From a virus: a DNA stretch of 64,000 nucleotides. The notes below the pieces were generated by a model. The model was not told where the DNA came from and did not search any database. It saw nothing but the letters and a program-made list of their open reading frames with translations. Of this stretch, positions 1 through 37,100 are shown piece after piece. Position 1 is the first letter of the stretch. The number at the start of each line of letters is the position of its first letter. The translations under genes and the position numbers were made by a program. The DNA is taken from positions 1 through 64,000 of IMG/VR virus record IMGVR_UViG_3300045988_165036. One strand, written 5' to 3'.

Positions 1-1
1 C

Positions 2-356
2 GTTATCGATATGCAAGATGAAAATAGTGCAAAAGAAAGATTTAATTATCCAAACGCGATTGAAGATGTTCTGCATCTTTATACACCGCAAAAGTTTAAA
101 AATTCGATGTTTGCCGCGCTTTCAGAGATGGTTGCGCAGGATTTGTTACAATTTCCCGAACCTTGTCCGAGAGGCGACACAGCATATTTTGAAAGCGGAG
201 AAGTAACGTTGACATTTGAAGATCGAAGAGGATTAATCGAGCTCGATCTTATGAAAGAAGAAATCAAATCAATTAAAAAGATGACGACCGACAAGGGTAA
301 TGTTAAATATGGTCTTGCGCCTTCTGTTGAAAAGAAGATGCACGATGACCGTGCCT
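2..356 (+). CDS. terL: Terminase large subunit, C-terminal nuclease region, exon 1 (5' end outside window)
   Basis: Frame is open from the window edge. It ends ...LAPSVEKKMHDDRA, the HDD catalytic-Asp motif that closes the RNase H-like nuclease of TerL. It lies directly upstream of the portal gene. The ORF-track stop at 365-367 lies inside the proposed intron. Confidence 0.6.
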
Positions 357-575
357 CAGTAGCATAGGGCACGTTAAATTTTCTCTAATTGACTCGGAGG
401 TCCAGAGATGGATAACGAGGGGCAAGTTTAAATACAGCCTGAACGACTTAACGAGAAAACCCAAATTGGTGGGATGCAAAAGTCTGATCTCATACTATAA
501 TCTAAAAATGAAATATGAGAGGCGAGGTCGAGTGTAAAGACACTCTTGGAAGAACCTTGCCGTATAACAAAAATG
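357..575 (+). ncRNA. Group I intron (ORF-less, 219 nt) interrupting terL
   Basis: P1 CGUGCCU(350-356)/GGGCACG(367-373) has a U356.G367 wobble at the 5' splice site. R-like CUGAACGACUUAACGAG is at 439-455 and S-like AAAAGUCUGAUC at 478-489. P7 is GACUU(445-449)/AAGUC(480-484). Hairpins lie at 487-520 and 530-545, and the terminal G is at 575. Joining the exons keeps the frame. Confidence 0.7.
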
Positions 576-760
576 ATTGCGGGTCGGCCGCTGCATATAT
601 TCTTTCCCTTCTTCGTAAAGAGGATGAATTTGGCGGAAAGCAAAATGTGATGGATTTCTCCAAACTTTACGGCGCATCTGCTAAAACGTTGAACAAAATA
701 AATAATCAAAAAAGAAGAAGTCCGTTTGCTGGTGGTTCTAATCCGTTCAGAAGACGGTGA
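576..760 (+). CDS. terL: Terminase large subunit, exon 2 (C-terminal tail)
   Basis: T356 + AT(576-577) gives Tyr, then CGSAAAYILSLLRKEDEFGGK...FRRR*. The A..AY.L helix after HDD is typical of TerL. Stop TGA is at 758-760, just before the RBS of the next gene. Confidence 0.55.
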
Positions 761-773
761 TTGGAGTAAAAGT

Positions 774-1199
774 GTGAAAGATAAAGAAAAAGAATTAAAA
801 GATAACTTTCAACCACAATGTTACAAAATTCATTTAGATATTTCAACGGTAAATGTTAATAATTTAATCGAAGAATTGTCTAAAATATCCAATATGATTT
901 TTGATGGTCTTGTCCCTGTCGTATACTTGCGGTGGGGATATTTCAAAAAAGATTTAACCGACTTGTTATCAAAAAAGATAACAAAAGAATTTTTCTGCGA
1001 AGAAGTTAAACCTGAATCTTGCGTTGGTCAATCCGACATCGTTTCGGTCTTCTTCAGGGAAAATTATGAAAATACTTTTGCGGAATATATCAACCAAGAG
1101 AAGCAGAAAGAACTTCTGAAAATCGAAGAGAATATTCGCAGAGCAAACGAGCGCTTGAACGAGCGTATCAGAGAAGCAAAGGCTTCTCAAAATAATTAA
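774..1199 (+). CDS. Hypothetical protein (coiled-coil C-terminus)
   Basis: GTG start 7 nt after GGAG (763-766). The ORF track starts at TTG 726, which has no RBS. No recognisable motif. Confidence 0.4.
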   Translation: MKDKEKELKDNFQPQCYKIHLDISTVNVNNLIEELSKISNMIFDGLVPVVYLRWGYFKKDLTDLLSKKITKEFFCEEVKPESCVGQSDIVSVFFRENYENTFAEYINQEKQKELLKIEENIRRANERLNERIREAKASQNN

Positions 1200-1218
1200 A
1201 AAAAGAAAGGAGCAGAAT

Positions 1219-3222
1219 ATGGCAGATAATGTCAAAAACGGGCAAGAGCCCAAAAAGCGCGGCAGACCGCCGAAGGTCAAGCCGGAGCCCGTAGTGAATG
1301 AGGCTCCTGAACGGCTGGAAATGGTTTCAAAATCTAAAACACCAGCATCGATAGAAAATGTGATGAAAGATTTGACCGGGCTTTACAAGAGGGCGCTTAA
1401 TGGCGGCTGGTGCGGCGGTGTTGATTTTAACCAATACAACCCGTTCCTTCAAAATGATAGATTAAAGATGTTAAACACTCGCCCTGGCACAATGGGGAGA
1501 GAGGATTTAACGAAGGCTCTTAAAACTCCGGGGGAAAGTGAACTTGGACTTCGTGCAGAAGCGTGGTCGATGAGTTCGACGCAGTATCTTTATTACAAGA
1601 TTTTGCGTATGGCAGCAGATATCCCGATGTTCAAATATTATCTTGTTCCGGAGCTTCTTGAGAAGACGGAATACAAGAAAGATGATTTCAAAAACGACGA
1701 CAGGTTAGTTGACGAGTGGCTGTCGCAGTTTGACGTTAAAAATACGCTGAAGAAGACTGCGTTGGAAGTGAAACGTGAAGGAAAGGCAATTTATCTTCTT
1801 CGCAACAGCATTTCCGGTACGGGTAAAAACAAAACGGTCAATTATGCAAAGTGGCAAAAATTGCCGAGTGAATATGTTAAACTCGTTAAAATCGGAGAGC
1901 ACGGGTATATTGCTTCGTTCAACTTTATGTTGTTTTTGAATCCGGCATTTTCTGTTTGCCAATATCCCGAATTTATTCAGGACATTTGGAATGATCTCGT
2001 TAACTCTGGGGCTGTTTCTACAGCTGGCTGTGGAAGCGGATATTTGCCGTGCGGCACGTATTCGTTCGCGGATGGAAGAGAAGTTAAACCCGGAATTAAC
2101 GTTAATAAACTTTTGAATTATTCTTATGAATATCGCGGTTCAAATGGAAAAGAAACCCTTCGGGGAAACCTTGAGATTACCAACAAGTCGCTTGCCGAAC
2201 GTTCCTATTTCTTCTGGGTCCAAATGCCGCAGGATTTGTGTTATACATTTTGCAGCGACAGTTCAAATCCGTGGGTTGTTCCCGATACGGCGGGGCTTCT
2301 CCTTTCTCTGGATGAGCTGGCCGATTACGATACACTTCAGGGGCTTGTTGAAAGTACGCCACTGACGGCGCTTTTGACTGCAGAAGCGGAGACGATTCCA
2401 AATCCGAACCCCGGTCAAGACCAGTCTGTTTTGAACCCGGAAACGATTGCCGGAATTGAAGAGCATTTCAACTCGTCGACCTCGACAAACCTTGAGGCGC
2501 TGTTTGCTCCTCTGAAGAATTTCAAGCTTTTGTCTCTTCCGAGTCAACCAAATAGTTCGGAGATCTCTGCAAATGCAACAAAGAATGTTCTGACTCGCGC
2601 CGGACTTGGTGGGCTTATTACGACAACCGATAAGCCTTCTGTTTCGCAGGTTAAAACGGCGCAGTTGCTCGCAGAAGCGGAAGCACATTTTGTCACGCTC
2701 CAATTCGAGTCCGTTTTGAATATGATTATTAATAAAATCATCGGAACAAAGTATCATTGGGGGCTCCATATTTGGGGCGGAATCTTTACATTTAACGATG
2801 AAATCAAGAGAGATAAGGAGCTGTTTGTTGCTGGAGCAACATTTGTTCTTCCGAAACTTGCGTCTGCGTATGATTTGAGCATACGTGACACCCGGGCCGT
2901 TCAGCAATATATCGATTCGTTCGATATTTATGACGACTTCAAGACCGTTACGCAAGTGCGTCAGGAAAATATTAATGAACAAAAGTCTGTTTCAGATACT
3001 ATTTCAACGGGTCGAGCAGGGCGTCCCTCGAAGGACGATTCTGATATCGACAATGATAATACGGCGGCTTCGAAAGACGGCGGGTTGGATACAGCGGACA
3101 CGCGCGAGTATGCAGCAAAAGAGCCGACAATTGGTGTATGCATCGTCTGCGGAGCGGAGTGCGACGGCATTTTATGTGATGACTGTCGTGAGAAATACGA
3201 CGAAGAGAATATGAGGTGGTAA
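1219..3222 (+). CDS. Portal protein (candidate), with C-terminal CxxC...CxxC zinc-ribbon-like tail
   Basis: 667-aa ORF immediately after terL with RBS AAAGGAG. Size and position are typical of a portal. The C-terminus reads CIVCGAECDGILCDDCREKY. No search was run. Confidence 0.55.
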   Translation: MADNVKNGQEPKKRGRPPKVKPEPVVNEAPERLEMVSKSKTPASIENVMKDLTGLYKRALNGGWCGGVDFNQYNPFLQNDRLKMLNTRPGTMGREDLTKALKTPGESELGLRAEAWSMSSTQYLYYKILRMAADIPMFKYYLVPELLEKTEYKKDDFKNDDRLVDEWLSQFDVKNTLKKTALEVKREGKAIYLLRNSISGTGKNKTVNYAKWQKLPSEYVKLVKIGEHGYIASFNFMLFLNPAFSVCQYPEFIQDIWNDLVNSGAVSTAGCGSGYLPCGTYSFADGREVKPGINVNKLLNYSYEYRGSNGKETLRGNLEITNKSLAERSYFFWVQMPQDLCYTFCSDSSNPWVVPDTAGLLLSLDELADYDTLQGLVESTPLTALLTAEAETIPNPNPGQDQSVLNPETIAGIEEHFNSSTSTNLEALFAPLKNFKLLSLPSQPNSSEISANATKNVLTRAGLGGLITTTDKPSVSQVKTAQLLAEAEAHFVTLQFESVLNMIINKIIGTKYHWGLHIWGGIFTFNDEIKRDKELFVAGATFVLPKLASAYDLSIRDTRAVQQYIDSFDIYDDFKTVTQVRQENINEQKSVSDTISTGRAGRPSKDDSDIDNDNTAASKDGGLDTADTREYAAKEPTIGVCIVCGAECDGILCDDCREKYDEENMRW

Positions 3223-3224
3223 TT

Positions 3225-3422
3225 ATGTTTGAAGCTAAAAAGAAAAAGTGTCAACACAACATTGGCAAACCTAACACCACCGTAAAACTTTTGGAAAACT
3301 TCAAAACAATGGTTGTCCCAGACACGAAATATGGTGTTTGTGTTTGTTGCGGCAAGAGTTTTGAGCTTGATATTAACAACAAAATAATCAAGAAAGGAGA
3401 GGCTGCCGATGTTGATTTCTGA
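3225..3422 (+). CDS. Small hypothetical protein
   Basis: ATG lies 8 nt after GAGGTGG and overlaps the portal stop. Contains CVCCGKSF. Function unknown. Confidence 0.4.
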   Translation: MFEAKKKKCQHNIGKPNTTVKLLENFKTMVVPDTKYGVCVCCGKSFELDINNKIIKKGEAADVDF

Positions 3423-4715: not shown

Positions 4716-6605
4716 ATGGAAGAAACCAAGAACATCTTGCAATTTGATCTGTCTCCGAAGCAGATTAAATTTAAAGACATACTTTCAAAAGAGTTTGTCG
4801 AGTTGGAAATCTGGGCGATTTCAGATGTCGACCCAAACAGAAATAACTCACACTTTACCTATGAGTCGTTAAAAAGGGCTGTTGAGAACGGCTCAATGAA
4901 AAACAAGCCAATTGTTGGCTTTTTTGAAAACAACAATTTCACGATCCACGAAGGGCACGCCGATTATGATCTAGAGCTTGACAAAGAGTTTTGGAACACG
5001 GAGCGCGGAGAAAGAATTCTCGGCTGGATTAGAGAATCCGACCCCGTGGAACTTGTTGAAAAAGACGGATTGCATTGGGTGAAGTTTCGTTGTATTTTGT
5101 GCACAACATATTGTTACGCACAAGTAAAGCGCCTGTTAAAAGACAGACGCAAAAAGGTTTCCGTGGAGATTACTGTTCATAAGTCGGATATGCGCGAGGA
5201 CGGGGTTTTAGACATTCTTGACTTTACGCTTAATGGAACGACAATTCTTGGAAGCAAGAATGGCAAAGAGGTGCTTGAAGGTATTCCCGGAGCACACCTT
5301 TCAATTCTTGAAAATCTCGACACGGATGCGCTTATGGCTCAAAAAACAGCTCTTTCTTTCGCTTACGAAAAAGCTTTCGGGGCGGATGAAGATAAATCTG
5401 GTGATACTGCAGAAATGCAGCCCCCGGAACAAAAATCTGAGGGGAAGGAGGAGATAAAAATGGAGAACGAAAATGTAGTCGTCGAAACCAAAGTTGTTGA
5501 AGATTTTGCGAAAGATGATATTGGCACGAAGTCCGCTCTTGAGGTTGACAAGTCTAAAGACGCAATGTCTGAAAAGCCTTGGGGCGAAGTAGACAAAGCA
5601 GAACTTCGCAAGCGCGTGATTGCGGCAGAAAATTTCAAGTCTATTGCGGATGATGTTTTCCTCGATCTCAGAGAAGGTTGGGAAGACGGTATCGAGGGAG
5701 CTCTGAAATATCCCGTTATGTGCATCGAAGGCGAAAAGCTTGTTTATAATCGTGGCGGGCTCGCTTCCGCAAAGGCATATGCCGAAAAGAACGGTGACGA
5801 GAAAGTAACCGAAAAGCTCGAGAAGATTTATAAGCATCTCGAACTTGAAGACGGCGATATGGAAAAAGAAGCGGCGGAACATTGCGAATTTTGCGAGGAC
5901 TATGATTGCAAGACGGAGGAAGCTATTCCTCTTGCCGCAGAGCAGGAAGATACTCCTTGTGAGTGTCCCGATGATAACGGAGAGCTTGAAATGGGCGGAT
6001 GCGAAAATTCTGAAAAGGAAGATTGCGGTGAGCCCGAAAAGCTTGAAGACGAACATCCTTGCGATGATTGCGGTGAAGACGATCACAAAGATGACGATGA
6101 CGAAGATGAAGATGATTGTGATGAGATGTGCAAGCTTTCAAAGCGCTGTGCCGAACTTGAGGCAAAGTGTGCAGAATATTGTGGCACGATTGCAAAAATG
6201 TCGGAAGACTTTGAGTCGAAAACGTCTGAATACGAGGCGGAAATTGCCAAGTATTCTGACTACGCAGAAATTAAGGGACGTATGGAAAAGGCAGAGGCGA
6301 AGCTTTATGAACAGTTCTGTTTAGAGCTGAAAGCGTATGCTGAGTCGATTATGGCAAACGAGAGGATTGAAAAGTCTGATCGAGATGCTATTGTCGAAAA
6401 ATGTGTTTCTGGCAAGTATTCGACGAAGGAAGAAATCTTTGCCGAAGTTGCTGTTGCTGCGTTTAAGACAAGAACTCCCACAGGGGAGAGATTTAGTTCT
6501 GCTTTTGAAGTTCCTGCGATGGGTGCTGACAGGGCAGAAGACAAAAGACCGATGAGCCGAGAAGAGCGTATGAAAGCTCGCGTGGCAAAATGCGGTAAAA
6601 AATAA
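4716..6605 (+). CDS. Scaffolding-like protein, possibly a prohead protease-scaffold fusion, with a Cys/Asp/Glu-rich insert
   Basis: ATG 4716 lies 8 nt after GGAGGAGGA. Position is between portal and capsid. The acidic coiled-coil C-terminal half is typical of scaffold proteins. The protease assignment is not supported by a clear catalytic motif. Confidence 0.4.
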   Translation: MEETKNILQFDLSPKQIKFKDILSKEFVELEIWAISDVDPNRNNSHFTYESLKRAVENGSMKNKPIVGFFENNNFTIHEGHADYDLELDKEFWNTERGERILGWIRESDPVELVEKDGLHWVKFRCILCTTYCYAQVKRLLKDRRKKVSVEITVHKSDMREDGVLDILDFTLNGTTILGSKNGKEVLEGIPGAHLSILENLDTDALMAQKTALSFAYEKAFGADEDKSGDTAEMQPPEQKSEGKEEIKMENENVVVETKVVEDFAKDDIGTKSALEVDKSKDAMSEKPWGEVDKAELRKRVIAAENFKSIADDVFLDLREGWEDGIEGALKYPVMCIEGEKLVYNRGGLASAKAYAEKNGDEKVTEKLEKIYKHLELEDGDMEKEAAEHCEFCEDYDCKTEEAIPLAAEQEDTPCECPDDNGELEMGGCENSEKEDCGEPEKLEDEHPCDDCGEDDHKDDDDEDEDDCDEMCKLSKRCAELEAKCAEYCGTIAKMSEDFESKTSEYEAEIAKYSDYAEIKGRMEKAEAKLYEQFCLELKAYAESIMANERIEKSDRDAIVEKCVSGKYSTKEEIFAEVAVAAFKTRTPTGERFSSAFEVPAMGADRAEDKRPMSREERMKARVAKCGKK

Positions 6606-24130: not shown

Positions 24131-27100
24131 GTGGAAGATATGAACCTTTTTGGTGGATTTCAGACCGCTCTTTCTGGGGCTGGAAGCGGATTAATCTCTG
24201 CTTCTAAAGATGTTGAATCGTATATTCAGAACATATATCAAGACGCGGCCGACAATATTTCCGAGAGAAAAAAACTTTTTAAAAACTTAGTAGAAAAAAT
24301 TGGTATTGCCGAAGACAAAGGAATTAAGAGCATTCTTGATAGATATGAAGAGTTCGAAAAAGAAGCGATTGCGTTGTCGTCGAAAGAGGAAAATAGAAAT
24401 CAAAAAAAATATTCAGAAACACTACAACAGATTAGTTTAATTCAAGGAACAGTGCAGAAGGCTTTAAATCAAGCTTTCAAAAGCGCAAGCGAGACAACGA
24501 GGAGTCTTATTGATCAGATCCATAGATCCTCAACTTTTCAGGTTGAGGATCTTTTAAAACAGGCTAAAACTTTTGATATTTCTGATGCAAATTTAAAAAA
24601 AATAGAAGAAACCGCTAGAAAAGAAATTGAAAAAAATCAACAAAAAGCATTTAGAGAAACGGCAAAAGCTTTTAGAAAAATAACCGGTCAACAATTTGAG
24701 ACAATTTTAAAAACCGGAGCGGAAGGAGTTATTAAATCCGCACTTGATACCATTTCTGCAAAGTATGGATTTTCCGAAAGTGATTTGTTAAAAATGGTTG
24801 CTCCTGCTTTTCAAAGGGCTACAAAAATGGCCGGAAGCGGAAAACTGAAGGCAATAGATCCGAGCAAAATAACCGGTTCGTTTGGGAAATTAGCATCCCA
24901 AAGAATTAGCGCAATTTATTCTGGACACCCGAAAGATACAGCGAAAGCATTGCAGGAGCTTGTTGGGGCGCGGGAAGAAATTTTTGATTTTGGTAATGAA
25001 ATAGCAAAACTTTCCGATATTGCTAAAACAGTTGGAAAAAAAATTGCCGTTAATATTGATGAAGCTACAAAAGAATTACAGATTGGATTTTACGATGCCA
25101 AAAACGTTCCGCAAAAACTAAAAGGCGGAGCGTGGGACATGTCGAAAATGCCATCATTTAAATTCTCCGCGCAAAGATTAAAAGAGGGACTGCTTTCTCG
25201 AAGCGGAATGACAACTCCAAATGATTTGGTTATGAAGTTCGACAAAGACACTCAAAAGACTGTCGTTACAACTACTGCAAATTTAATTATGGATGGTGTT
25301 GCCGATGTATTAAGATCTGCTAGTGGTGTCTCGGATAAAGACCTTATGTATCGTCTTAGAAAAGCGGTTGATAGGGGCTATAGAGGAGCGTCTTCTGAGT
25401 CGACTAAGTTTTTTGATAAAGAAATTAATGATTTAAGAGACGGAATCAGTTCTGGTCGAATTATGAATATGGGCGGTCGGATTAATGTTGTTCCTGCGTT
25501 TTTTGATATCTTGAAAGCAATCAAAAAGGCGAACATAGACGTCGGAACAACCTCTGAGCACTATGATGAAAAAGTATTTCGAGATTTATTTAGCGTTATT
25601 AATGCGTGGAGGGTTGCTGGGAGAAGCGTTGAAAAGCTAAAGTCTGATGCGACATACGGTTATTTATTTAAAGACAATGGTATTGCAAATATGATCAAGA
25701 TGGTCATAGATCCAATATCTAGACTTTCTCTGGCAGTCGGACAAGGGTCGACCGCTCAAATAAACAACGGATATATTCAACTTGCGGCCAACTGGCAAAG
25801 AGCGGCTTCGTTTTTGCCCGGGGATACGTCAAAGCATTTATCTCAAACGCAGAATTATGAAATACCCCGTGGAGGAATGAGGGGTTCTTTACCGTCTACA
25901 AAAATTAGAACAGCAGCAGGACAGGCTCTTGGATTTAATTATGACGCTCTTTCTGAAAGGCTATATAACATTCAATATATAACAGAAGAAAAGTTGTTAG
26001 AAGAGTGGGATAAATGGCTCGAGTCAGAAAGCGGAAAAGAATATTTAGGACAAGGTGGTTCCAAAATCCTACCGGGATTGCATGACAGTGCATCAATATA
26101 TAGAAGTGATTTAATAAATGATTTTATAACTCAAAGATATAGATATAAAAGAGTTAGCGCCAACGATTGGTATGAAACCCAAAGAAAGCTCGGATTGTCT
26201 GGCAAGTTGTCTGGTTTGTCTGAAAATCAAGTAGCGGCAACCATCGTGTCTAATATTATGGGCGTTGATATCAAAAACATAGAAGATCTTAAATGGGGGC
26301 AAATGTCTGGAGACGACGGGAGCGTTGATCCCACGAGAGATTTTGTCTTTAATTTCAACGAAATTGTGGACTGGATGGGGAACCCAAAGGGTCTTGGAGC
26401 TGAAACAGGAACTCGTTCTGCAATGATGCCCATCGTCAGTAAGTTTATAACAGAAAGATTTGGTCAAAATATTCATATGCTTCGGCTTGCTGAAGAAATG
26501 GGATCCAATGATTTTGGAGGTATGATCGTTGGCGCCATTCAACATGTGCTTGTTAATGGGAAGTCGGCAAAAGATGTTGTGTCTGCATTAAAAGGAACCT
26601 CTTTGGAGGGAATGTTTGAAGCAGATGGAGATAATCTGATTTTGTCTTCAACTATGGACAAAACCAGAGCTCTTGATTTAAATAAAGTTCAAAGAGAGCT
26701 CGAATCAAGTCTTGGAATCCAATTCAAGGAAGGGCTTGTTATTTCGGAAGCTGTAAACGCTGCACACGATTATTTTTATCAAAAAGATACAAAGTATGGG
26801 CAAAGAGAACTTGAGGCAATGCGCAGAACTATTTCGACTGCAAGTTCTATAAATAAAGATATTGACTTTACAGAATTTTTATCACACGAAGAATCAACCG
26901 TTGTTAGCAAGGGTGCTGAAGATGCTAAAAAGATGAGAGATTCTTATGCAAAAGCCTTTAGAGCATCTTTTGGATCAAACGAATTACAAGATGAAGTAAA
27001 AGATATTACGGAAGAATTTCTCGGAAAAGATACAACTTTCGCTTTCAATCAAGAGTCAGATCTTGGGTTAGTTGATGCAGAAAGTTTTGCCAATTCAGCA

Positions 27101-30100
27101 TTAGCTAATATTTATGAACAAATTTCACAAAGTGGAGCTGGGTTTGGTAGAATATCTTTGCCGAAAGGATTTAAACCAATTAAGCATACAGATGGATTTG
27201 GTAAAGAGTGGTCAATGTCAAGCATTGTAGTTCCAGCAAGAGAACACGAGACTGAAACAGCCTTTTTTGATGCTGCTCATCAAACCGGAATTTCTCTTTC
27301 TGAATTTGACATATCTCTTAATAGGGTTATACGTTCAATCGCAGAATATAATGATATAATGGGAGATTCCAAAAAGAGTGAAGAAGATAGGGAATATATT
27401 ACAAATAAGCTTAATAGAGATCTTGAAAATTTTTATAGAGACAATTATGCTTATTTTACCAGTAAAGATTCTCCTATCGCTCAAGATATATACTATAATC
27501 GAGTTAGAGGATCTCATTCTTTTATGGCCGCAGGTCTTAGCGAAGCTCAAAGAGATAAACTTTTAAAAAGCTCGAATCCAGATGAAAAAAAACGTCAAGA
27601 TGAAAAAGAGCTCGGAAAGATTTTAGATGAGAGTTATTTAGTTGGCCCGGAGGCAATGAGAAAATTAATCGGGGATGACATTAAAGATATTAAGGCTCAA
27701 TATGAATATATTTTTGGCGAAAAAGCATCTAAAAAAATGAGTAAAGATGAGATGCTTGATAAAATTATTGAAGCTATGACCGTCGAAAATATTGGGACAG
27801 ATGTCTTCAAAAAAAGAGGATTATTTTCTAAAGATCTTCGTTTCCCGTCTATTCAAGGACAAGACGTTCGCTATATTAGAGGTTTTGTAACGAATGCGCT
27901 TCGAGGATCTCTTGATACTGCTTATATGGGAAGCGCTGCCGCCGCAGCAAACCGTACTGACTATGATAGAGATCACGTAAATTTGCTTTCTGCTATTAGA
28001 AATATTGGCGGCGTTAAAAATGTCGAGGAATATTTGAAAGCTGCGGAAGCTGTTACTCGTCTTCATGAAGCAGTTTCTGCAAATATTAGAGATGTTAGGG
28101 CTGCAAATAAGGGGCGGATAAGTGATAAAATCGAGCTTTTTAAAGATGTAAATGTAACAGATGAGGATTTGTCACGTATTGCATCGGTAGCGGCATTAAG
28201 AAACCGGGGACAAATCGGTCTCCTGTCATCACAAGCAACGGAAATGAGAAATTTCCTTTCTAGTAAAGGATTTGACGAGATGCAGTCTGGTGATGCTCCG
28301 GCTGGATTAGGACAGCTTGTTCGTTATGCTTTTGAAAAAGCAGAACAAGATGCGATTTCTTATAAGCACGTTATTAAGAGATTATCTTCCGAAAAATTTA
28401 AGAGTTATGGGATTACCGCAGAAGCGGCGATGGCGGAAGATAGAAAAAAATATATCGAAGAACTTGGCGGAGATGTTGTTGTAGACGAGCTATTAAAACG
28501 CAGAGAGGAGCTTGAAAAACAATATAAGAACAAAGGCGGAATGCCTCTGCCAAGCGAATTGATAAATGACTTTGATGCTAAAGCTGTAAACTTGAATTTA
28601 AATAGGCTCAAATATGGCAGAGATACGCGAATTCTTAATGCAAATGACGAAGAAGTAATGCGAGCAAAGCTTGCAGCCACTACATCCCTTGAACAAGCAG
28701 TTGCTAAGGCATGGGAAAGAGATGGAACGGGTTATAAAAAAACTTCGGATTATTTTAGAGCGCTTAAAGAACTTGGAATATTTGGAGACCAAATAGAGGG
28801 AGTTCCTTTTATTCAAGCCTTAACTCAAGCAACCGCGAGTGGCGGAGAAGATTTTGAAAAAAGAATTAGAAATATTGTAAATGCAAAAAAATACAATGTT
28901 GATGTTGACGCCTTATTAATGAAGCGAGATACGAGTGGCAATTTTGTTTCAACAAGTGGTCTTGCTCAAATGCCATTTGAAATGTTGATGGACATCATTG
29001 ATATGGTTGAGGCTCCGTTCGCAACAAAAGGAAAAACCCTATTATCTCAAGCCCTTATTTCTGCAAATAGAACTCTCGGGGATGAATCTCAAAGTGATTA
29101 TGCTATCGGTAAATTTTTAAAAGCTGGCAATATAGAGGGCAAAACTCCTCAAAAAACGGTTAAAAGTGATGTGCGAGAAAAGGTTGATAATGCAAAAAAA
29201 AGAGCAATTGAAGGGAAAACTGGGAAGTCTAATGTTGATAAATATTTAACAGCGCTTGCATTAAGTGGAGCATCTGATGATGAATTAATAGCTGCGGCAA
29301 AAAACGTGCAAACTGCCGAGCAAGCCAGGTCTTTGATGCCGCAAGTTCAAAAAGAAATTAGTCGAAAGGCATCTGATGTTCGTGCGGGAGGCGATTTAAG
29401 TAAAGTTAATCCGGCAGCCTTGGCAAGCATGGAAGATTGGACTCTTTTTAAGGCAAAATTAAACGATCCTGGACATACTTATTCGAAAGTATTAGCAGGC
29501 GGGAAAGAACAGGTCCTTGGAAGAATCAAATCCGCCTCGCAAATGGGATCCTTCTTCCGGGGTGGCGAATATACCGATGCAATGAGGGCCCAAGACGAAG
29601 CGTTTGAAAGAGCTTTGGAAGGATATGGCGAAAGCAATTTTTCAATAAAAGATTTTATTGGAGAAAATTATACTTCACAAGATATTAAGATATTTGAAAA
29701 TCTTAGACGTAAAAAAATTGCGTCTGATTTTGGCACAATTCAACATAAAGAAATTGAAATTCTTGGCAAACTTTTAGCAAATCCTCCAAAAGGTTTAGAT
29801 GTTGATGCTTTATTGTCTTATAGTTCTGGAACGAGTTTTGAAGGAAAAATCCGTTCTGCGTTATCAGGAGATTCGGTTCTCAAAAAGGGATTTGAGGAAG
29901 ACTTAAAGGAATTAGAAGAAGAAAGAAGCAAGGCAGAAAAAAATCTTGGAAAATTTGGATATAATTCAGAAGATATTCAGAAATTTCAAAATGCTGCATT
30001 ATTTTCTACTCTTGCACAGACAAAGTTGACGAGACAACTTTGGTTAAAAAATGTTGCAAGAGAATATTCTCTTGGACTTGAAAGAGGAAATCTTTTGGGT

Positions 30101-32335
30101 GGTCAGGATTATACCGCTGGAACAATAGACCAGATTTATTACAAAGACGGTAAATTTGTTATTGGAGATTCAAAAAATAAGAGCGGTGCCGATCCGCTGT
30201 CTCAAGTTCTGCAAATTACTTATGGAGCGATGGCTCTTAAAAAGTTAATTCAAGAATATGGGAAGGCCAAAAACATCGGAGACGATGAACTTGATAAGTT
30301 CAAAAAACAATATGGAATAGAAGATAGTGCAGAGTTTACTTCAGCTATTGAAGAGGTTCTACAAAAGGGTGATCTTGATAACGCAATTTCTGGAATTATT
30401 ACAAAGTTTGACACAAGAGGAGGATATGTAAAAGCATATCAAACAGATCCACTTAAAGATGCCAAAATGGCGGATTTGTTAGATAGATATTCTAGAGATG
30501 CGTCAGCAATGACTCCCGAAGAGCGTGCTCAGATTGAAAAATATCAAGCAGAATTATATTCCAAAGAATCTCGTATCTTTGCAGATAATCCATCTGAATT
30601 ATCTATTTTTAAATATGACGAATTAATAGATAAAAGTTTTAAAGAATTTGCCAATGCTATTCAAAAAAGAGCAGAATTGCAAAAAAGACTCTTCAAACTT
30701 GAACAAGAAGGGCAAAGAGGAAGTATAGAATATGAATCAGCTCAAAAAGAAATTGACAAACTCAATGCCGGAATTCTTGCAAAAGAAGGAGAAAGATTTA
30801 TTGGCATTGGCGGATCTTATCAAAAAGAAGCTTCTGATTATGCTGATGCGTATGAAAAATCTATTGAGGCATATAAATCTGAATTTTCTTACAACGAAGC
30901 CATAAAAGGCATTTCGGAAGAGAGGAAACTCCAAAGTGAAATCTTCAAGTTAAACAAACAAAAGAGCGCTCTTGAAAAAGAAGATGCTAAAGCCAACGAA
31001 GCCACCATAAAAGAAATTGAAGAGGTTCTAAAGTCTTATCAGCAATCAATTGACTCCATTAAAGCCTATAGAGAACAGCTGAAAGCACTTTATGGCGACA
31101 AATGGGGCGAAGGTGCTGAAGACGGGAAGCAGACCAAACTGAAAGATATTGAGACAAGAGAAAAACTAACGGGGCTTCTTGGCGCAAGAGACGAAAAACG
31201 ACTTGCTGACGCGGAAACAAATTCTGCAACAAAAGAATATATTGCGCTCTTAAATCAACAGCTTCAGCTTGAACTCAAAATTAAGAGCTTTCAACGTGAC
31301 GCTGCTACCAGCAGAGGAAGACAAAAAGAACTTGACCTTCTTGCGGCAGAGGCATATAATGAGCAATTAGAGGAAACCAATAAAAACCTTGAAAAGATCG
31401 ACAAGAGCAAAGTTAAAAACATTGACTCGATCAATGCTGAAAATGAGTTAAAGCGCAATTCCGCGCTTGCCTCTCTTTATGCGAAGAAACCGTATTCTAA
31501 TATCTTCGAATATATCAAAGCAGACATTAGCAGAGCAACTCAGCGTATTGTTGATTTCGGTCTTGCAGCAAAAGTCCTTAATACGGCTCGCAAAGAGATT
31601 CAACAGGTTTATCAAAACATTCTGAAGCTCGACGAAGCGATGACCAACCTTCGTATTGTTACCGGCTCTAACACCGAACAAGCGAAGAGTATGATGAACG
31701 CTTATAATGACCTTGCGATGCAACTTGGCACGACTACGCAAGCTGTTGCACAATCTGCGGCAGAATGGTTGAGACAGGGTTATTCTGTTTCCGAAGCCAA
31801 CGAATTGATCAAGTCTTCGACTTATCTGTCTCGTCTTGGCTTTATGGATATGAATCAGTCTGTTACGGCGCTAACTTCTGTTATGAAGGGCTTCCGTATC
31901 GAAGCAACCGACTCGATGGACATCGTTGATAAGCTGACACAGCTCGACGCGAAGTATGCAACCACGGCTGGAGATATTGCTACGGCTCTTTCGAGAACCT
32001 CTGCGGTTGCTCGTGAGGCGGGTCTTGATCTCGACCAAACTGCAGCAGCGTTGACTACAATGATTGACGTGTCGCAGCAGGATGCGAGCAGTGTTGGTAA
32101 CGCTTTCAGAACGATTCTTGCGAGATACGGGAATGTTAAAGCAACTGCGTTTACTTCTTTGGTTGGCGACTCTGATGATGTTGACGACACAAATAGTTCT
32201 ATAAACGATACCGAAAAAGTACTCGGAGCGATTGGGATTAAAATCCGTTCGTCTTCGAGTGATATGCGTGACTTTGATGACGTTATGGATGAGCTCGCTG
32301 ACAAGTGGGTAACTCTTACCGACGTCGAAAAGAAT
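24131..32335 (+). CDS. Tape-measure protein, exon 1 (2,735 codons)
   Basis: GTG start 10 nt after GGAGG. The C-terminal part carries the TP901/TIGR01760-like core ...AGDIATALSRTSAVAREAGLDLDQTAAALT...GNAFRTILARYG...ELADKWVTLTDVEKN. The last 26 codons of the ORF-track ORF are read-through into the intron. Confidence 0.75.
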
Positions 32336-32637
32336 TTGAAACAAAGTTCCATTATGGAGCAATCCATAATTGCAAACCCATTGAATTGCTGGAACGCCCT
32401 TAGAGTAGTATAAACTAAAACATAGCGATGAAATATACGCAAGTGTGAATGTGGAAAATTATACTGATTGGGTAATCAGCAGCTAAGCTCCGAATAGGAG
32501 AAAGTTCAACGACTAAGTGGTGGCAAGCGCCATCCAGTGGTGGGCTCCACGAAAGTGGATGATGAGATAGTCTAATCTCATATGAAAGTATGAGGAACAA
32601 AAGTTCGTATGATTTAGCGAATCATATAAATAAAATG
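32336..32637 (+). ncRNA. Group I intron 1 in the tape-measure gene (ORF-less, 302 nt)
   Basis: The 5' exon ends in U32335 and the intron ends in G32637. P4-like CUGAUU/AAUCAG (32464-79), Q-like AAUCAGCAGC, R-like GUUCAACGACUAAGUGG (32504-20), S-like GAGAUAGUC (32564-72). P7 is GACUA/UAGUC. P3 is CCAUU(32378-82)/AGUGG(32516-20). P9 hairpin at 32577-94. P1 is weak. Confidence 0.65.
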
Positions 32638-32661
32638 GCCGTTTCAACGGCACTCGCGGGT
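32638..32661 (+). CDS. Tape-measure protein, 24-nt micro-exon (AVSTALAG)
   Basis: GCC GTT TCA ACG GCA CTC GCG GGT supplies exactly the xIAxALAG segment expected between ...EKN and VRQRN... in tape-measure proteins. It is flanked by intron-terminal G32637 and ends in U32661, which pairs in the P1 of intron 2. Confidence 0.65.
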
Positions 32662-33038
32662 AAATTTATGCCCGTGTGTGGGTTAAAATACACACAAAGA
32701 ACACATTTAATTGCAGGTAAAACCTTAGAGCCTTTTACCACAATAATCAAGAAATTAGATTATGACGGTTTAAAAACAAAAGGATTGGTAGATCTGCAAC
32801 GAAGCTCCTAAATGAATATTTCACAAGGAGAACGTTCAACGACCATCCCCCGATGAGGGGCGTATTAATTATGCTACAGGAGTACGGCGCAAATAAAGGC
32901 GTGGGTGAAAATCCCTCAAATGGAAATGGTGTGACTCGGTATGAAAATACAGGGTTAAGAAATGGTCTATTCTTGCGCGAAAACGCAAGCTGAAATTTAA
33001 TATAATAATTAGTTATTGATTTAAAAGGGGATTAAAAG

Positions 33039-33224
33039 ATGAAAGAGTATTATAACGTTTCTCAATTAAGAGTTTGCCGATATCTTTACTCACTGGGATT
33101 TGAGAAAGAAAGTTGGTTCGACAAAAACGGAAAAGAACATTGGCGATTTGAAAAAACAGATGATTTGATGATTGCTATGGATTTTTACAAAAAAATGAGA
33201 GACAAAAATAAAGTAAATAATTAA
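33039..33224 (+). CDS. Intron-encoded small protein (DUF5659-like by eye)
   Basis: 61 aa with RBS AAAAGGGG. The pattern ...CRYLYSLGFEKESWFDKNGKEHWRFEKTDDL..AMDFY resembles small Firmicutes/phage proteins of unknown function. Confidence 0.45.
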   Translation: MKEYYNVSQLRVCRYLYSLGFEKESWFDKNGKEHWRFEKTDDLMIAMDFYKKMRDKNKVNN

Positions 33225-33243
33225 AATCTTGGAGGTTTTTCAT

Positions 33244-34017
33244 ATGAAAAAATGGACAGAAGAAGAAATTGAATGGTTAAAAGAGAATTTTCCACATAAA
33301 CAATTTAGCGAAATGGAACGATATCTTAACAGATCTTGTCAAGCTATTACAAAAATGGCGCATAGATTAAAAATCAAAAGAGATGAATTGGTTTATAAAA
33401 ATTTTACAAAGGAACAGGATGAATGGTTGAGAAAGTTCTATTATGATGCGAGTTGGGAAGATCTTTTACAGAAATTTTCAAATTTATCAAAAACGCAAAT
33501 TGAGGCCCGGGCAAAATATCTGAAAATTAAAAGAAAACCAACATTTTATAAGTTCTCTAAAGAAGAAGATGAAACATTAAAAAAGTATTTTGGGAAAATT
33601 TCAACAAAAGAAGTATCCTTGCTCCTTGATGGTAGGGATGAAAAGGCGATATATCATCGCGCAAGAAAATTGGGGCTGGAAGTATATAAAATATGGACAA
33701 AAGAAAAAGACGAGTTTCTTATCAACAATTATGATAAGCTAAGAATAAGGGATCTTATGAAAGCGCTTGGCTTAAATTCTAATACACCAATTTATAATCG
33801 TATGCGAGAACTTGGTCTGCAAAATTGTGGAATTGGAAGAATTTGGAATGATGGAGATGACAGATTTTTAATAGATAATTATAATTTACTAACAAATAAA
33901 GATATTGCTTCTATATTAAAAAGAACAGAAATTGCTATAAAGAGCCGAGCAAGTAATCTTGGTATCAAAAAAGAAATAAATATGGATTGGGAAACAATAC
34001 GCCAGAGCAGTTTATAG
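33244..34017 (+). CDS. Intron-encoded protein built from five Myb/SANT-like HTH repeats, with no recognisable nuclease motif
   Basis: ATG 33244 lies 8 nt after GGAGG. Five ~48-aa repeats start WTEEEIEWLKENF, FTKEQDEWLRKFY, FSKEEDETLKKYF, WTKEKDEFLINNY and WNDGDDRFLIDNY. Each ends in a basic helix (..HRLKIKR, ..AKYLKIKRK, ..ARKLGLEV, ..MRELGLQN, ..ASNLGIKKE). Confidence 0.6.
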   Translation: MKKWTEEEIEWLKENFPHKQFSEMERYLNRSCQAITKMAHRLKIKRDELVYKNFTKEQDEWLRKFYYDASWEDLLQKFSNLSKTQIEARAKYLKIKRKPTFYKFSKEEDETLKKYFGKISTKEVSLLLDGRDEKAIYHRARKLGLEVYKIWTKEKDEFLINNYDKLRIRDLMKALGLNSNTPIYNRMRELGLQNCGIGRIWNDGDDRFLIDNYNLLTNKDIASILKRTEIAIKSRASNLGIKKEINMDWETIRQSSL

Positions 34018-34152
34018 AATTTGTTTCTAATTTTTTCCCAGAAAAATTGGAAACATTATTAAAATATATGAAAAAAACAATAAAAATAACTAATTAAAAA
34101 ATAAATTATATTAAATTTCGGGTCGGAGTTATGAACCGACTGAATTCAAAAG

Positions 34153-37100
34153 GTCAGACAGCGTAATATTTTCGGGATCTATATGGAAAATTACGACACA
34201 TACAAACAGGCAATTTCTGAAGCCGAAAAAGCCCAGGGAACCGCCGCTCGTAAAATGCAGGCGTATAATGAAAGTGTTGCGTATAGTATCAATCAGCTCT
34301 CTGCGGCATGGGAAGGATTTACGCAAAAACTTGAGGCAAGTCCGGCCGTCAAGGGTATTTATTGGATTTTGACGCAAGGAATAAAGAATCTTGATCACAT
34401 TTTGCAGTGGTTAATACCCATTATCGCAACATTTAATGCCGATAAAATCGTAAGTCTCGCTAAATTTTTGTTTCCTTTGGTGACGGCTATTCCGAAAGCG
34501 GTTGGAAATGGATTTAAAGATCGTCACGGTAATGAATTCTATGAAAATATGACTCAAAAGATGACCGCAGAAAATACCAATGCTATTGAAGAGTTAACCA
34601 ATGCGACAAAAGATAACACTGCGGCATTAAGAGGAAGAAAGTCGAAGAGCGGCGCTGGCGGAGTTGGTAAAGCAGATGAGGGGGCAACACCAAAGGGCCC
34701 CAAAACAAAACAAAAGCCATATCAAAAGTATACATCTGATGTAAGGTCTCGCATAGATAGTCTTAATTATCATATTTCTGAAGCGGAAAAACAAGGAAAT
34801 GTTTCGGACGTAGAAAAACTTAAGAAAATTAAGTCGGAAGAATTAAGAAAAATAGAAGGAAACAAACCGGAAATTATTTCTGCGTATAGAAAAGATACCA
34901 GGGATGCGACAGAATTAGCCCAAAAACAAATTAATGAAATTGACAAAAGAGTGCAAGATTCAAAGGCTAACGCCCTTATGAGAAAAGAAATTGCGGAAAA
35001 TGCCCATAAAAACGGGCAGGTACAATCGAAACTTAAAGAGAAGGACAGAAGGGCTGAAGCTTCGCAGATTCACGCGGCTGAAATGGAGGCTTCTGGAGAG
35101 CAGCAGAAGGAGCAGATATTTAAAGAAAGAAACGATAGGCTCAAAGAGATTAAAAAACGGACAAAAAAAGATTTACGAGAAGAAAATAAGAGATTAAAAC
35201 AACAGGAAGAGGAATATAATAGAGCCAATAGCACTGGGAGAGCTAAAACCAGAACAGACGTAAAAGAACTCGCCCCAGAAGAACGCGCAAATCTTGAGGC
35301 TCAAAAGAAACTGGAGCGTTCCGCTCGTCTAAAGACCGGTGTTGTTTCTGGCATTGGCGCCGGAGCCGTTCGCTTTGCAAACAAAGGATCAAGTTTCCTC
35401 GATGAGGCTATGGGTGTTTCTGGTGTCGAAGTTGACACCGGTGAAGCTCTTGCAATGGGCGTTGCTCAGGGTGCTCTAACTGGAGTTGCGACTGCGTTTA
35501 TGGGACCTGCCGGAGCAGTTCTTGCCTCAATTCTTGGAGACGTTTTGTCTTCTTTCTGGAAAAAAATTGCTCACGCAGACGAAATTGATCGTAAACAGCG
35601 TGTCGAAGATGCCAAAAAACAACTCGAAGCAATTAAAGGGATCGAAAGTTCAGTTACTGGTTTGATTGATTTAAACAAAAAAAATCAAGCGCTGTGGGAT
35701 TCTGATGAATGGAAACAATTCAACGAACAGGTTGAAACAATCAATGAAGCTCTTGAAAAATCAGAGCTCGGAGATAGAATAATCAACCTCGGCAACAGTA
35801 CACAAACCCTTTCTGAATATTTCGAAGAAGCGGCAAGAACCGGAAATAAAGATATGCTTTCTCGCGTCGAAGCGGAGAGAATTCGTTTTGAGGCTGAAAA
35901 GACATACGCTGCAGGAGAACAGGATCGTTATACCCTCCAAAAAGAGATTAACGAGAATCAAAAGAAGCTCGCAAAGCTTGATAACGACGAGATATCGAAA
36001 AGGAAAGAACTTAACGTAGCAATCAAAGCTGCGAGGTCAGAAATTAAAGACTATTCCGAAGCCCTGAAGAGGGGTTATATGCAAGCGTCGTTCTACTCTT
36101 CTGGCGTTGGAACAATGGAGTCTTATGACATTGGAAACGCAACGCTTGATAGAGTAATTATGCAAATCGCTCGAGAATGGGCAAAAGATAGTCCTGATAT
36201 TTTTGCTGGAAATCAGCTGACGAGCGATGCTCGTTTCGAAATTATTTCGTATCTGCGAGAACAGCCGGGCTATTCTTCTCTGTTTAAAAACGACACGAAG
36301 AATGTTGGAGATATGTTAACAGCAAGAGACGCAGTTGATGATTTGAGAAAATCTCTTAATATGTCTCAAAAACAATTGAAAGAGTTTGCCAATAGTAAAG
36401 ATCTTCTTAAAATTGGAAAGTCTTTCGGTTTAATTAAAGATGATATTATTGATATTAATCAATTGTCAGAAGCAGACAAATCTGCTGTTTATAAATTGAT
36501 CGATAAAATTAATCTTGTTGATGAAGACGGAATTACAACAATTGCACACGCAATGAATATGACCGTTGAAGAATTTGAAAGAGCAAATGCAGATGGAGCA
36601 TTTAACTGGCTAACAGCTGATGTTGCGATTGGTGGAATAGATAAGTTAAATGAAAAAATGCAGACATTTAACGATTTGTTATCTGCAGCATCCGAGGGTT
36701 CCCTTTTAACTTCTGAAAATCTAAACAAGATTGCAAATCAATTCCCAACATTGCTCCGTGGAGTTGACGAAGCTGGGAAATATACAAAAGATTTGAGCTC
36801 CGATAATATTCTTGATAATATAATCAGAATGATGACAGACGAAGATTCCTTACGAGAAATTTATTCTGGACTATTTTCTGGAAGCGTAGCAAAAGATTCT
36901 GAAATCTGGAATAATTTTATGACCCTTGGAAAAGGAAGCGAAATTGCTAATTCCAATCTTTCTGAAGAGATTAAAGAGCGTATTAAAAAAGCAGGCTCTT
37001 ATTCTGATATCGTCGATATTTTTGCAATGGATAAGATGAAAGAATATAATGACGCGTTTAAAGAGTATGTTACAAGTATGTATCCAATAACTGATTTACT

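Follow-up and report, generated by a model that had tools for sequence, protein, structure and literature searches.

The window analysed is the whole 64,000-nt stretch covering positions 1 to 64,000 of the IMG/VR virus record IMGVR_UViG_3300045988_165036, and it opens within terL, the gene for the large terminase subunit. The terL frame (11..367) leads to ...KKMHDDRASVA and is closed by a TAG (365-367). Further on, this frame opens again as a second ORF (515..760, 81 aa), which ends with ...NPFRRR and a TGA at 758-760, followed by GGAG (763-766) and by the GTG (774) of the next gene. The interruption of terL corresponds to an insert of 219 nt (357-575, + strand, 40.6% GC) that contains no ORF apart from the in-frame run-in to the downstream part of the gene, and 8 stops in the terL frame, all three kinds being represented. 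Joining position 356 to position 576 yields ...HDDRAYCGSAAAYILSLLRKEDEF... up to the TGA at 758-760, corresponding to the reading ...KKMHDDRA-Y-CGSAAAYIL.... An earlier note on this DNA had described the TAG a few codons past the HDD motif and a joined frame ending just before the ribosome-binding site of the next gene, and both were found at these positions. It had also counted about 400 nt without a gene; only the 219 nt of the insert are non-coding, positions 576-760 being the second exon, as that note's own model would have it. The features of the locus, assigned according to the proposed group I intron model, are listed in Table 1.

Table 1. Features of the interrupted terL gene, of its proposed intron and of the tape-measure gene in the window. 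Intron, exon and helix assignments are predictions.
Feature	Position in window	Strand	Description
terL exon 1	2..356	+	C-terminal part of the large-terminase nuclease domain; gene start upstream of the window
Exon 1 end	356	+	...KKMHDDRA plus U, first base of a Tyr codon
P1	350..373	+	CGUGCCU 350-356 / guide GGGCACG 367-373, loop 357-366; 7 standard pairs
Intron (putative)	357..575	+	219 nt; missing from the intron-less L001 allele; match of model R2 inside
P3	379-385 with 453-459	+	P4-P6 and the P7 5' strand lie within it
J3/4	386-392	+	UAAUUGA
P4	393-396 with 416-419	+	100% of cells pair; also in the minimum-free-energy fold
P5	401-404 with 409-412	+	GAGA tetraloop 405-408; 3 covarying pairs; in the minimum-free-energy fold
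P6	421-423 with 437-439	+	Invariant, thus uninformative on covariation
P6a	426-427 with 434-435	+	One covarying pair
P7 pseudoknot	443..485	+	A443-U485, bulged C444, G445-C484, A446-U483, C447-G482, U448-A481, U449-A480
P8	460-463 with 470-473	+	4/4 pairs covary; 97.7% of cells pair
P9 hairpin	488-494 with 514-520	+	Seven standard pairs; in the minimum-free-energy fold
P9.1	521-527 with 555-561	+	Compensatory changes
P9.1a inner hairpin	530-535 with 540-545	+	Compensatory changes
3' tail	562..575	+	GUAUAACAAAAAUG, terminal G575; predicted 3' splice site 575|576
terL exon 2	576..760	+	AU completes the Tyr codon, then CGSAAAYILSLLRKEDEF...NPFRRR, TGA 758-760
Tape-measure exon 1	to about 32325	+	phrog_4211 positions 585-827
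Tape-measure intron 1	32326-32594	+	RF00028, 84.6 bits; approximate junctions
Tape-measure mini-exon	between introns 1 and 2	+	~57 nt
Tape-measure intron 2	32652-~34180	+	RF00028, 48.5 bits, E 7e-11, just under gathering
Tape-measure gene resumes	about 34183	+	phrog_4211 positions 850-996

The full-length orthologue of the interrupted protein in a sister phage, L017 (IMGVR_UViG_3300045988_157852, 132 kb), matched phrog_2, terminase large subunit, with an E-value of 5e-23, and the next large gene after terL in that phage encodes the portal according to PHROGs. With TerL as the query, Pfam returned only a sub-threshold ATPase match and a sequence search of the PDB reached only the Walker-A region. 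An AlphaFold model of the intron-less homologue P0003 was calculated with 70 sequences (mean pLDDT 81.6), its nuclease domain being mostly above a pLDDT of 90. The best PDB matches of this model in Foldseek, at target-normalised TM values of 0.66-0.73, were Sf6 gp2, D6E TerL and the nuclease domains of G20c and RB49 gp17. In the model, HDD occupies residues 427-429, where the final long helix begins (429-451, pLDDT above 90), and the tyrosine whose codon is split by the insert is residue 432. The split codon is thereby predicted to fall within the first turn of the final nuclease-domain helix of TerL, and exon 2 to encode most of this last core helix together with a C-terminal tail modelled at low confidence. 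The earlier note had located the insert in the nuclease motif of TerL, and the structure model and the Foldseek matches agree, placing it in the nuclease domain three residues past HDD. The Asp residues of HDD presumably bind the catalytic metal, as in published TerL nuclease structures.

The position of the insert was examined in the light of 123 TerL homologues. HDDR-x-Y is read straight through in 113 of them, as HDDR[F/A]Y. The possibility that homologues naturally end at HDDRASVA had been raised beforehand; only P0002 and P0004 end at HDDRAS, and both are close relatives of the window carrying the same insert. P0001, encoded by contig L001 and retrieved in the homologue search, is uninterrupted at this site (...KKMHDDRSYCCAAAGYILSLLRK, motif HDDRSYC), and so is P0003 (HDDRAYVFSATSYIL, motif HDDRAYV); the corresponding motifs are HDDRFYV in the intron-less P0006 and HDDRVYT in P0007. 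At the DNA level, alignment to the intron-less allele of L001 leaves 219 extra nt in the window, between ...GAC and TGC.... Exon 2 aligns without gaps to the intron-less homologues. In the sister phage L017, this terL intron occupies an identical position (5057-6217), and its ends, once joined, restore HDDRV-Y-TISAAAYIL. The predicted spliced proteins, from the window and from L017, could both be aligned gaplessly to the four intron-less proteins, HDDR-x-Y being invariant. The junction 356|576 splits the Tyr codon as U|AU (phase 1), three residues past HDD, and it is the only junction that fits the homologues while providing a U before the 5' splice site and a G before the 3' splice site. The comparison with intron-less homologues that had been suggested to fix the junction thus supports 356|576.

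We also searched for the joined form directly. The ligated junction GACCGTGCCTATTGCG was sought in metagenome and viral contigs: at least 124 matches were listed, all of them chance matches with flank identities of at most 54/120. Against cultured phage records, neither tblastn with the spliced C-terminus nor megablast with positions 1-3300 of the window gave a match.

The insert folds into the helices of a group I intron, with P4-P6 and P8 enclosed by a P3/P7 pseudoknot. On the window sequence, each of the 57 pairs in the final model is a standard one, and the minimum-free-energy fold by itself yields P1, P3, P4, P5 with its GAGA loop, P6, P8, P9 and P9.1. P1, with its U.G wobble at 356|357, had been proposed in the earlier note; its seven pairs are present, the wobble U356.G367 marks the 5' splice site, and the helix is compensated in L017, where the exon reads CGUGUCU and the guide GGACACG. 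Across the intron family described below, P1 is likewise a U.G-initiated helix with a mode of 7 bp, which ends 5 nt before P3 in 51/124 members, versus a mode of 4 bp in shuffled sequences. The R-like element CUGAACGACUUAACGAG is found at 439-455 and the S-like element AAAAGUCUGAUC at 478-489. The P7 helix GACUU (445-449)/AAGUC (480-484) had also been recognised from the letters alone, and two of the six P7 pairs modelled here covary in the family. The closing pair A443-U485 covaries with G-C, C444 being bulged, and the pair G445-C484, predicted to bind the guanosine, is invariant in 34/34 sequences.

P8 directly follows P3 (A459, then C460), leaving no P7.1 or P7.2, and the same holds throughout alignment A2, described below. 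Among the terL copies of the intron, the variation of P8 is confined to its loop, and P9 is invariant and thus devoid of covariation support. The P9-type hairpins announced by the earlier note were recovered at 488-520 and 521-561. Compensation is seen in P9.1, with GGCGAGG/CCUUGCC in the window, GGCAGGG/CCCUGCC in L002 and GAGAUGG/CCGUCUC in L128; in P9.1a, GAGUGU/ACACUC is exchanged with AAGUGU/ACACUU. At the 3' end, G575 had been singled out as preceding an in-frame continuation: it is indeed the sole G in the last 13 nt of the intron and the one that gives the conserved protein. The 3' tail resembles that of L017 (...UAACAAGAAUG|) and that of the family (...GUAACAGAAUG|), a terminal ...AAUG| being common to L016, L017 and the intron family. 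For P10, a pairing of the guide with the 3' exon that is helpful without being obligatory, a weak helix of 2-3 bp is possible, which displays no covariation between the window and L017.

The covariation was quantified on alignment A2, made of 34 distinct compact cores of the family with an explicit structure in which P7 is written as a pseudoknot. In the core, 96.6% of the cells pair, versus 39-47% in controls where the partners were slid by 1-3 columns. Pairs changing on both sides amounted to 17, distributed over P3 (6/7), P8 (4/4), P5 (3), P7 (2/6), P4 (1) and P6a (1), and the observed covariation score was reached in 0/500 shuffles. The fraction of paired cells was 98.7% for P3, with compensatory changes in 6/7 pairs, and 99.5% for P7, whose two covarying pairs are A-U/G-C (24:9) and A-U/U-A (26:8); the other 4/6 pairs of P7 never vary and are uninformative. 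P4 exchanges CUCG/CGAG with CUUG/CAAG. At each of the 43 columns that are invariant across the family core, the window has the shared base. The RNA thus has a group I core supported by covariation.

A covariance model, R2, was then built from 31 members of the family, the window and all terL copies being left out and the structure being chosen by RNAalifold. The RNAalifold structure contained the same P3, P4, P5, P6/P6a and P8. Over the 64-kb window, R2 gave a single match, at 368-490, with 110.7 bits and an E-value of 5.5e-23. With its 8 stops, a fold z-score of -2.4 and a family-model E-value of about 5e-23, the pattern of the insert is beyond chance.

The Rfam model RF00028, searched over positions 250-850 of the window, gave no match at the gathering threshold and none at E<=10. 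The earlier note had held that the lack of a covariance-model match would speak against the intron; this is what was observed with RF00028, and the reverse with the family model. The gathering score of RF00028, 50 bits, was reached on 0/20 of the family-bearing loci scanned. One family member, L039, was matched below gathering (39.2 bits, E 5e-8), and RF00028 aligned its P1 and P3-P9 on segments that are column-homologous to the window assignments, GACUAAA and AUAGUC of L039 falling on the model positions of the window P7. This match is filter-dependent: it disappeared in a scan of a sub-range and was reproduced in a scan of the whole locus. RF00028 is moreover incomplete and may fail on phage introns, which RF00028 and GISSD under-detect (PMC11878797). 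Because none of the 20 family loci scanned reached gathering, L039 was matched below it with the same helices and such under-detection is documented (PMC11878797), we consider the missing RF00028 match as a sensitivity limit and not as counter-evidence. The absence of an RF00028 match is an unsound criterion for this intron.

From its sequence, we estimate with a probability of about 0.9 that the insert is a functional group I intron, self-splicing at 356|576. In the proposed mechanism, which is the usual two-step route of group I introns, P1 would arise from pairing between the last seven bases of the exon and the guide GGGCACG, and would present U356.G367. A free guanosine bound at the P7 pair G445-C484, beside the bulged C444, would attack after U356; the terminal G575 would then take its place there, and the 3'-OH released on U356 would attack after G575. 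Ligation of ...GCC U to AU UGC... would create the codon UAU (Tyr) and the RNA ...CGUGCCU|AUUGCG.... Spliced reads would carry GATGACCGTGCCT|ATTGCGGGTCGG, and the predicted peptide across the junction is ...MHDDRAYCGSAAAYILSLLR. An unspliced message would produce a TerL lacking both its C-terminal tail and the final nuclease-domain helix. Since only the spliced mRNA would encode this last helix and tail, we infer that DNA packaging depends on splicing by the ribozyme.

Three other readings were weighed against self-splicing. A decayed relic, namely a group I descendant that no longer splices and leaves terL a pseudogene in defective genomes, is improbable. Although the homing endonuclease has been lost relative to L017, RF00028 gives the window intron no score and the related loci L002-L004 also have an in-frame TAG in terL, the window matches 43/43 invariant columns of the family core with every modelled pair intact, and exon 2 is conserved in frame. 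In addition, the independent copies of the intron (window, L002-L004, L016 and L017) differ, in P1, P8, P9.1 and P9.1a, either by compensatory changes or in loops; such compensatory or loop-only differences among terL copies imply selection on the fold.

Even less credible is a gene split without RNA splicing, in which TerL would end at HDDRASVA and the ORF at 515-760 would be translated apart to supply the last helix in trans. An ATG at 515 does open the 81-aa ORF in the same frame, but no Shine-Dalgarno sequence precedes it and the stretch 515-575 evolves in the compensatory manner of a paired RNA rather than as coding sequence. In L017, a 0.9-kb endonuclease gene displaces this stretch, the exon-2 part being retained, and the protein is one continuous chain in 113/123 homologues.

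Finally, another junction or mechanism, be it removal of 350-577 (HDD-CGSAAAY), translational bypass, stop-codon recoding or an intein, has a negligible probability: joining HDD|CGS keeps the frame as well, but it would remove the invariant R-x-Y and has neither the U.G wobble nor the terminal G, in line with the earlier objection that it breaks the splice-site rules; the 8 in-frame stops of all three types and the lack of a suppressor tRNA exclude recoding, read-through and an intein; and a translational bypass of 219 nt that spans a conserved ribozyme fold is not known to have a precedent. No suppressor tRNA was detected in the window, nor next to terL in L016 and L017, and TAG ends 1/25 of the long ORFs in the window. 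An intein would need an open in-frame insert, and 8 stops lie in the frame. A group II intron was discarded as well, as it would need domains I-VI and more than 600 nt, whereas the insert measures 219 nt and no group II model matched in the window.

With self-splicing as the preferred reading, terL should be annotated as one spliced gene, formed by exon 1 up to 356 and by 576-760, and not as a truncated terminase followed by a hypothetical ORF of 81 aa. The insert had been called ORF-less, and no ORF was found in 357-575, whereas the copy in L017 bears one. This ORF (5284-6210 in L017) encodes a protein of 308 aa with GIY-YIG (E 2e-9) and NUMOD1 (E 1e-10) matches; it is located between P9.1 and the 3' tail, its stop codon overlapping the conserved ...UAACA... 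tail. As judged from these sequences, the window intron appears to be the endonuclease-less form of a mobile intron. Being without an endonuclease, it could not home unaided; we conjecture that it might be mobilised in trans by an enzyme of the L017 type during co-infection.

The terL gene of this clade of phages has been hit repeatedly, by the intron with and without a GIY-YIG endonuclease and, at a second site, by an insertion that apparently bears TnpB. In L001 (ENA ERZ27279230 k141_346, 3-1160), terL is interrupted upstream of HDD, between ...ERFN and YPNAIE.... The C-terminus of the ORF in this insert resembles TnpB/IS605-OrfB and terL resumes in frame ~110 nt later, making the insert a candidate for an IS605-family insertion or an IStron. 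A second phage is interrupted at this point too, since P0005, which is 98% identical to the TerL of L017 and comes from a contig of 75 kb, likewise stops at ...KERFN. The ERFN/YPNAIE site is intact in the window (about 38-70).

Another peculiarity concerns L002-L004, three independent assemblies with 97%-identical terL, one of which is labelled pig gut. They exhibit an in-frame TAG (L002 631-633, L003 631-633, L004 265-267) where relatives have TAT (Tyr), giving GDKKL*TMPE versus GDKKLYTMPE. This TAG could be a nonsense allele, or reflect suppression or recoding. Upstream of terL, the abiF RNA motif RF03085 was detected (46-49 bits) in L016 (6899-6935, - strand) and in L017 (1900-1936, + strand). 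It is accompanied in both by a tRNA-Asn/tRNA-Thr pair, a few kb upstream of terL, the counterpart region preceding the start of the window.

The intron has many relatives. Its 18-nt R-like element was found exactly in 22 IMG/VR contigs, and a looser core pattern in over 119 viral contigs as well as in 37 contigs from assemblies of prokaryotic genomes, many phyla being represented. One architecture is common to the family, some members carrying an additional ORF within L6, L8 or the 3' domain; ORFs in the P6 loop occur in related members. The genome contigs among the family loci (L005-L168, from IMG/VR and GTDB) include archaeal MAGs as well as Bacillus, Paenibacillus, Nostoc and Prevotella. 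Apparent major capsid genes are interrupted by many members, with motifs such as NGGTTLRMRRYNPL, GDNPTNLGVSDF and FGTAPVRDAYF, and two or more copies of the intron are found in one gene in L012, L019 and L005.

The ends of the family members were set at the 5' side by P1 and at the 3' side as ...GTAACAG + AATG|, the counterpart of ...UAACAAAAAUG| in the window. A 3' splice site directly after GTAACAG had been tried and was rejected, only 3/49 flank pairs being in frame; the next G, ...GTAACAGAATG|, gave 27/49. With these ends, the joined flanks are open in 27/49 members, versus 3-4/49 when shifted by +-1 or +-2 and 1/49 when left unspliced. On the strength of these flanking sequences, the family appears to behave as introns. 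Among distant family members with the same guide GGGCACG, none is located at the HDD site of terL.

Tentatively, with odds somewhat below even, we regard the intron as part of a large unmodelled lineage of compact group I introns that have neither P2 nor P7.1/P7.2, are missed by RF00028 at gathering, and often split capsid-like and terminase genes. The core shared by the lineage is CUAAUUGACU...GGGGCAAG...CCUGAACGACU(U/A)AA...A(A/U)AGUC, with a 3' end of ...UAACAGAAUG. No description of this lineage was found in a literature search. The lineage is what would be mildly new here, being abundant in uncultured phages, hardly represented in the records of cultured ones and for the most part overlooked by RF00028. 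If this reading is true, many phage structural genes that are 'truncated' or 'split' in metagenomic catalogues would be intron-containing. An Rfam scan at gathering would miss an abundant lineage of phage group I introns, the members of which are recovered by a simple family-specific covariance model. In blastn searches of cultured phage records, there was only 1 weak match to the intron, and only 3 such matches to the family consensus. A 65-nt blastn match, 82% identical, links positions 481-546 of the window (P9/P9.1) to an unannotated region of the Microcystis phage MaeS (MT362618.1, 36329-36393), which may represent the periphery of a related intron in a cultured cyanophage.

Several known introns share traits with that of the window. 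The T4 td intron with I-TevI and related IA2 introns of phages occupy essential genes and are mobilised by GIY-YIG homing endonucleases. The L017 copy is like the td intron in bearing such an enzyme; the window copy differs in lacking one and in having P8 directly after P3. In the 1990 classification of Michel and Westhof, IA2 introns reportedly have P7.1/P7.2 between P3 and P8. With no P2 and no P7.1/P7.2, the lineage would therefore not belong, by this criterion, to the classical IA2 type of phages. The tRNA introns of Azoarcus and Anabaena are ORF-less IC3 introns of anticodon loops and possess a P2. The window intron is similar to them in its size class (~200-250 nt), its lack of ORF, its minimal periphery and its GNRA-capped P5, but it lies in a protein-coding phage gene and has no P2.

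Close precedents in terL itself are the group I introns known in Bastillevirinae phages, for which splicing was observed in vitro (SIOphi) and in vivo (phiAGATE) (PMC11878797). These were found by the RF00028/GISSD models, are IA2/IA3-like and mostly carry HNH-type endonuclease loops (PMC11878797). Like them, the window intron is of group I and interrupts the large-terminase gene of a tailed phage; unlike them, it is not scored by RF00028, has neither P2 nor P7.1/P7.2 and is ORF-less, the enzyme of its sister copy being GIY-YIG. PMC7431792 was considered as a further precedent for a terL intron and is not one. Both terL introns with demonstrated splicing (PMC11878797) and ORF-less group I introns were already known. 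The window intron changes nothing in the understanding of the working or the occurrence of group I introns and would not surprise a specialist, its use being for annotation and intron surveys.

The same genome carries two further group I introns, which split the tape-measure gene (24131-38694, + strand) in the region 32326-34183. The second of them contains an ORF at 33039-33224 and another at 33229-34017; matches to DNA-binding and, weakly, to HNH-like PHROGs were obtained for the downstream ORF. These introns are similar to the terL intron in belonging to the same ribozyme class and in splitting an essential structural gene. Unlike the terL intron, they are matched by RF00028 and not by R2, and they are of a different lineage.
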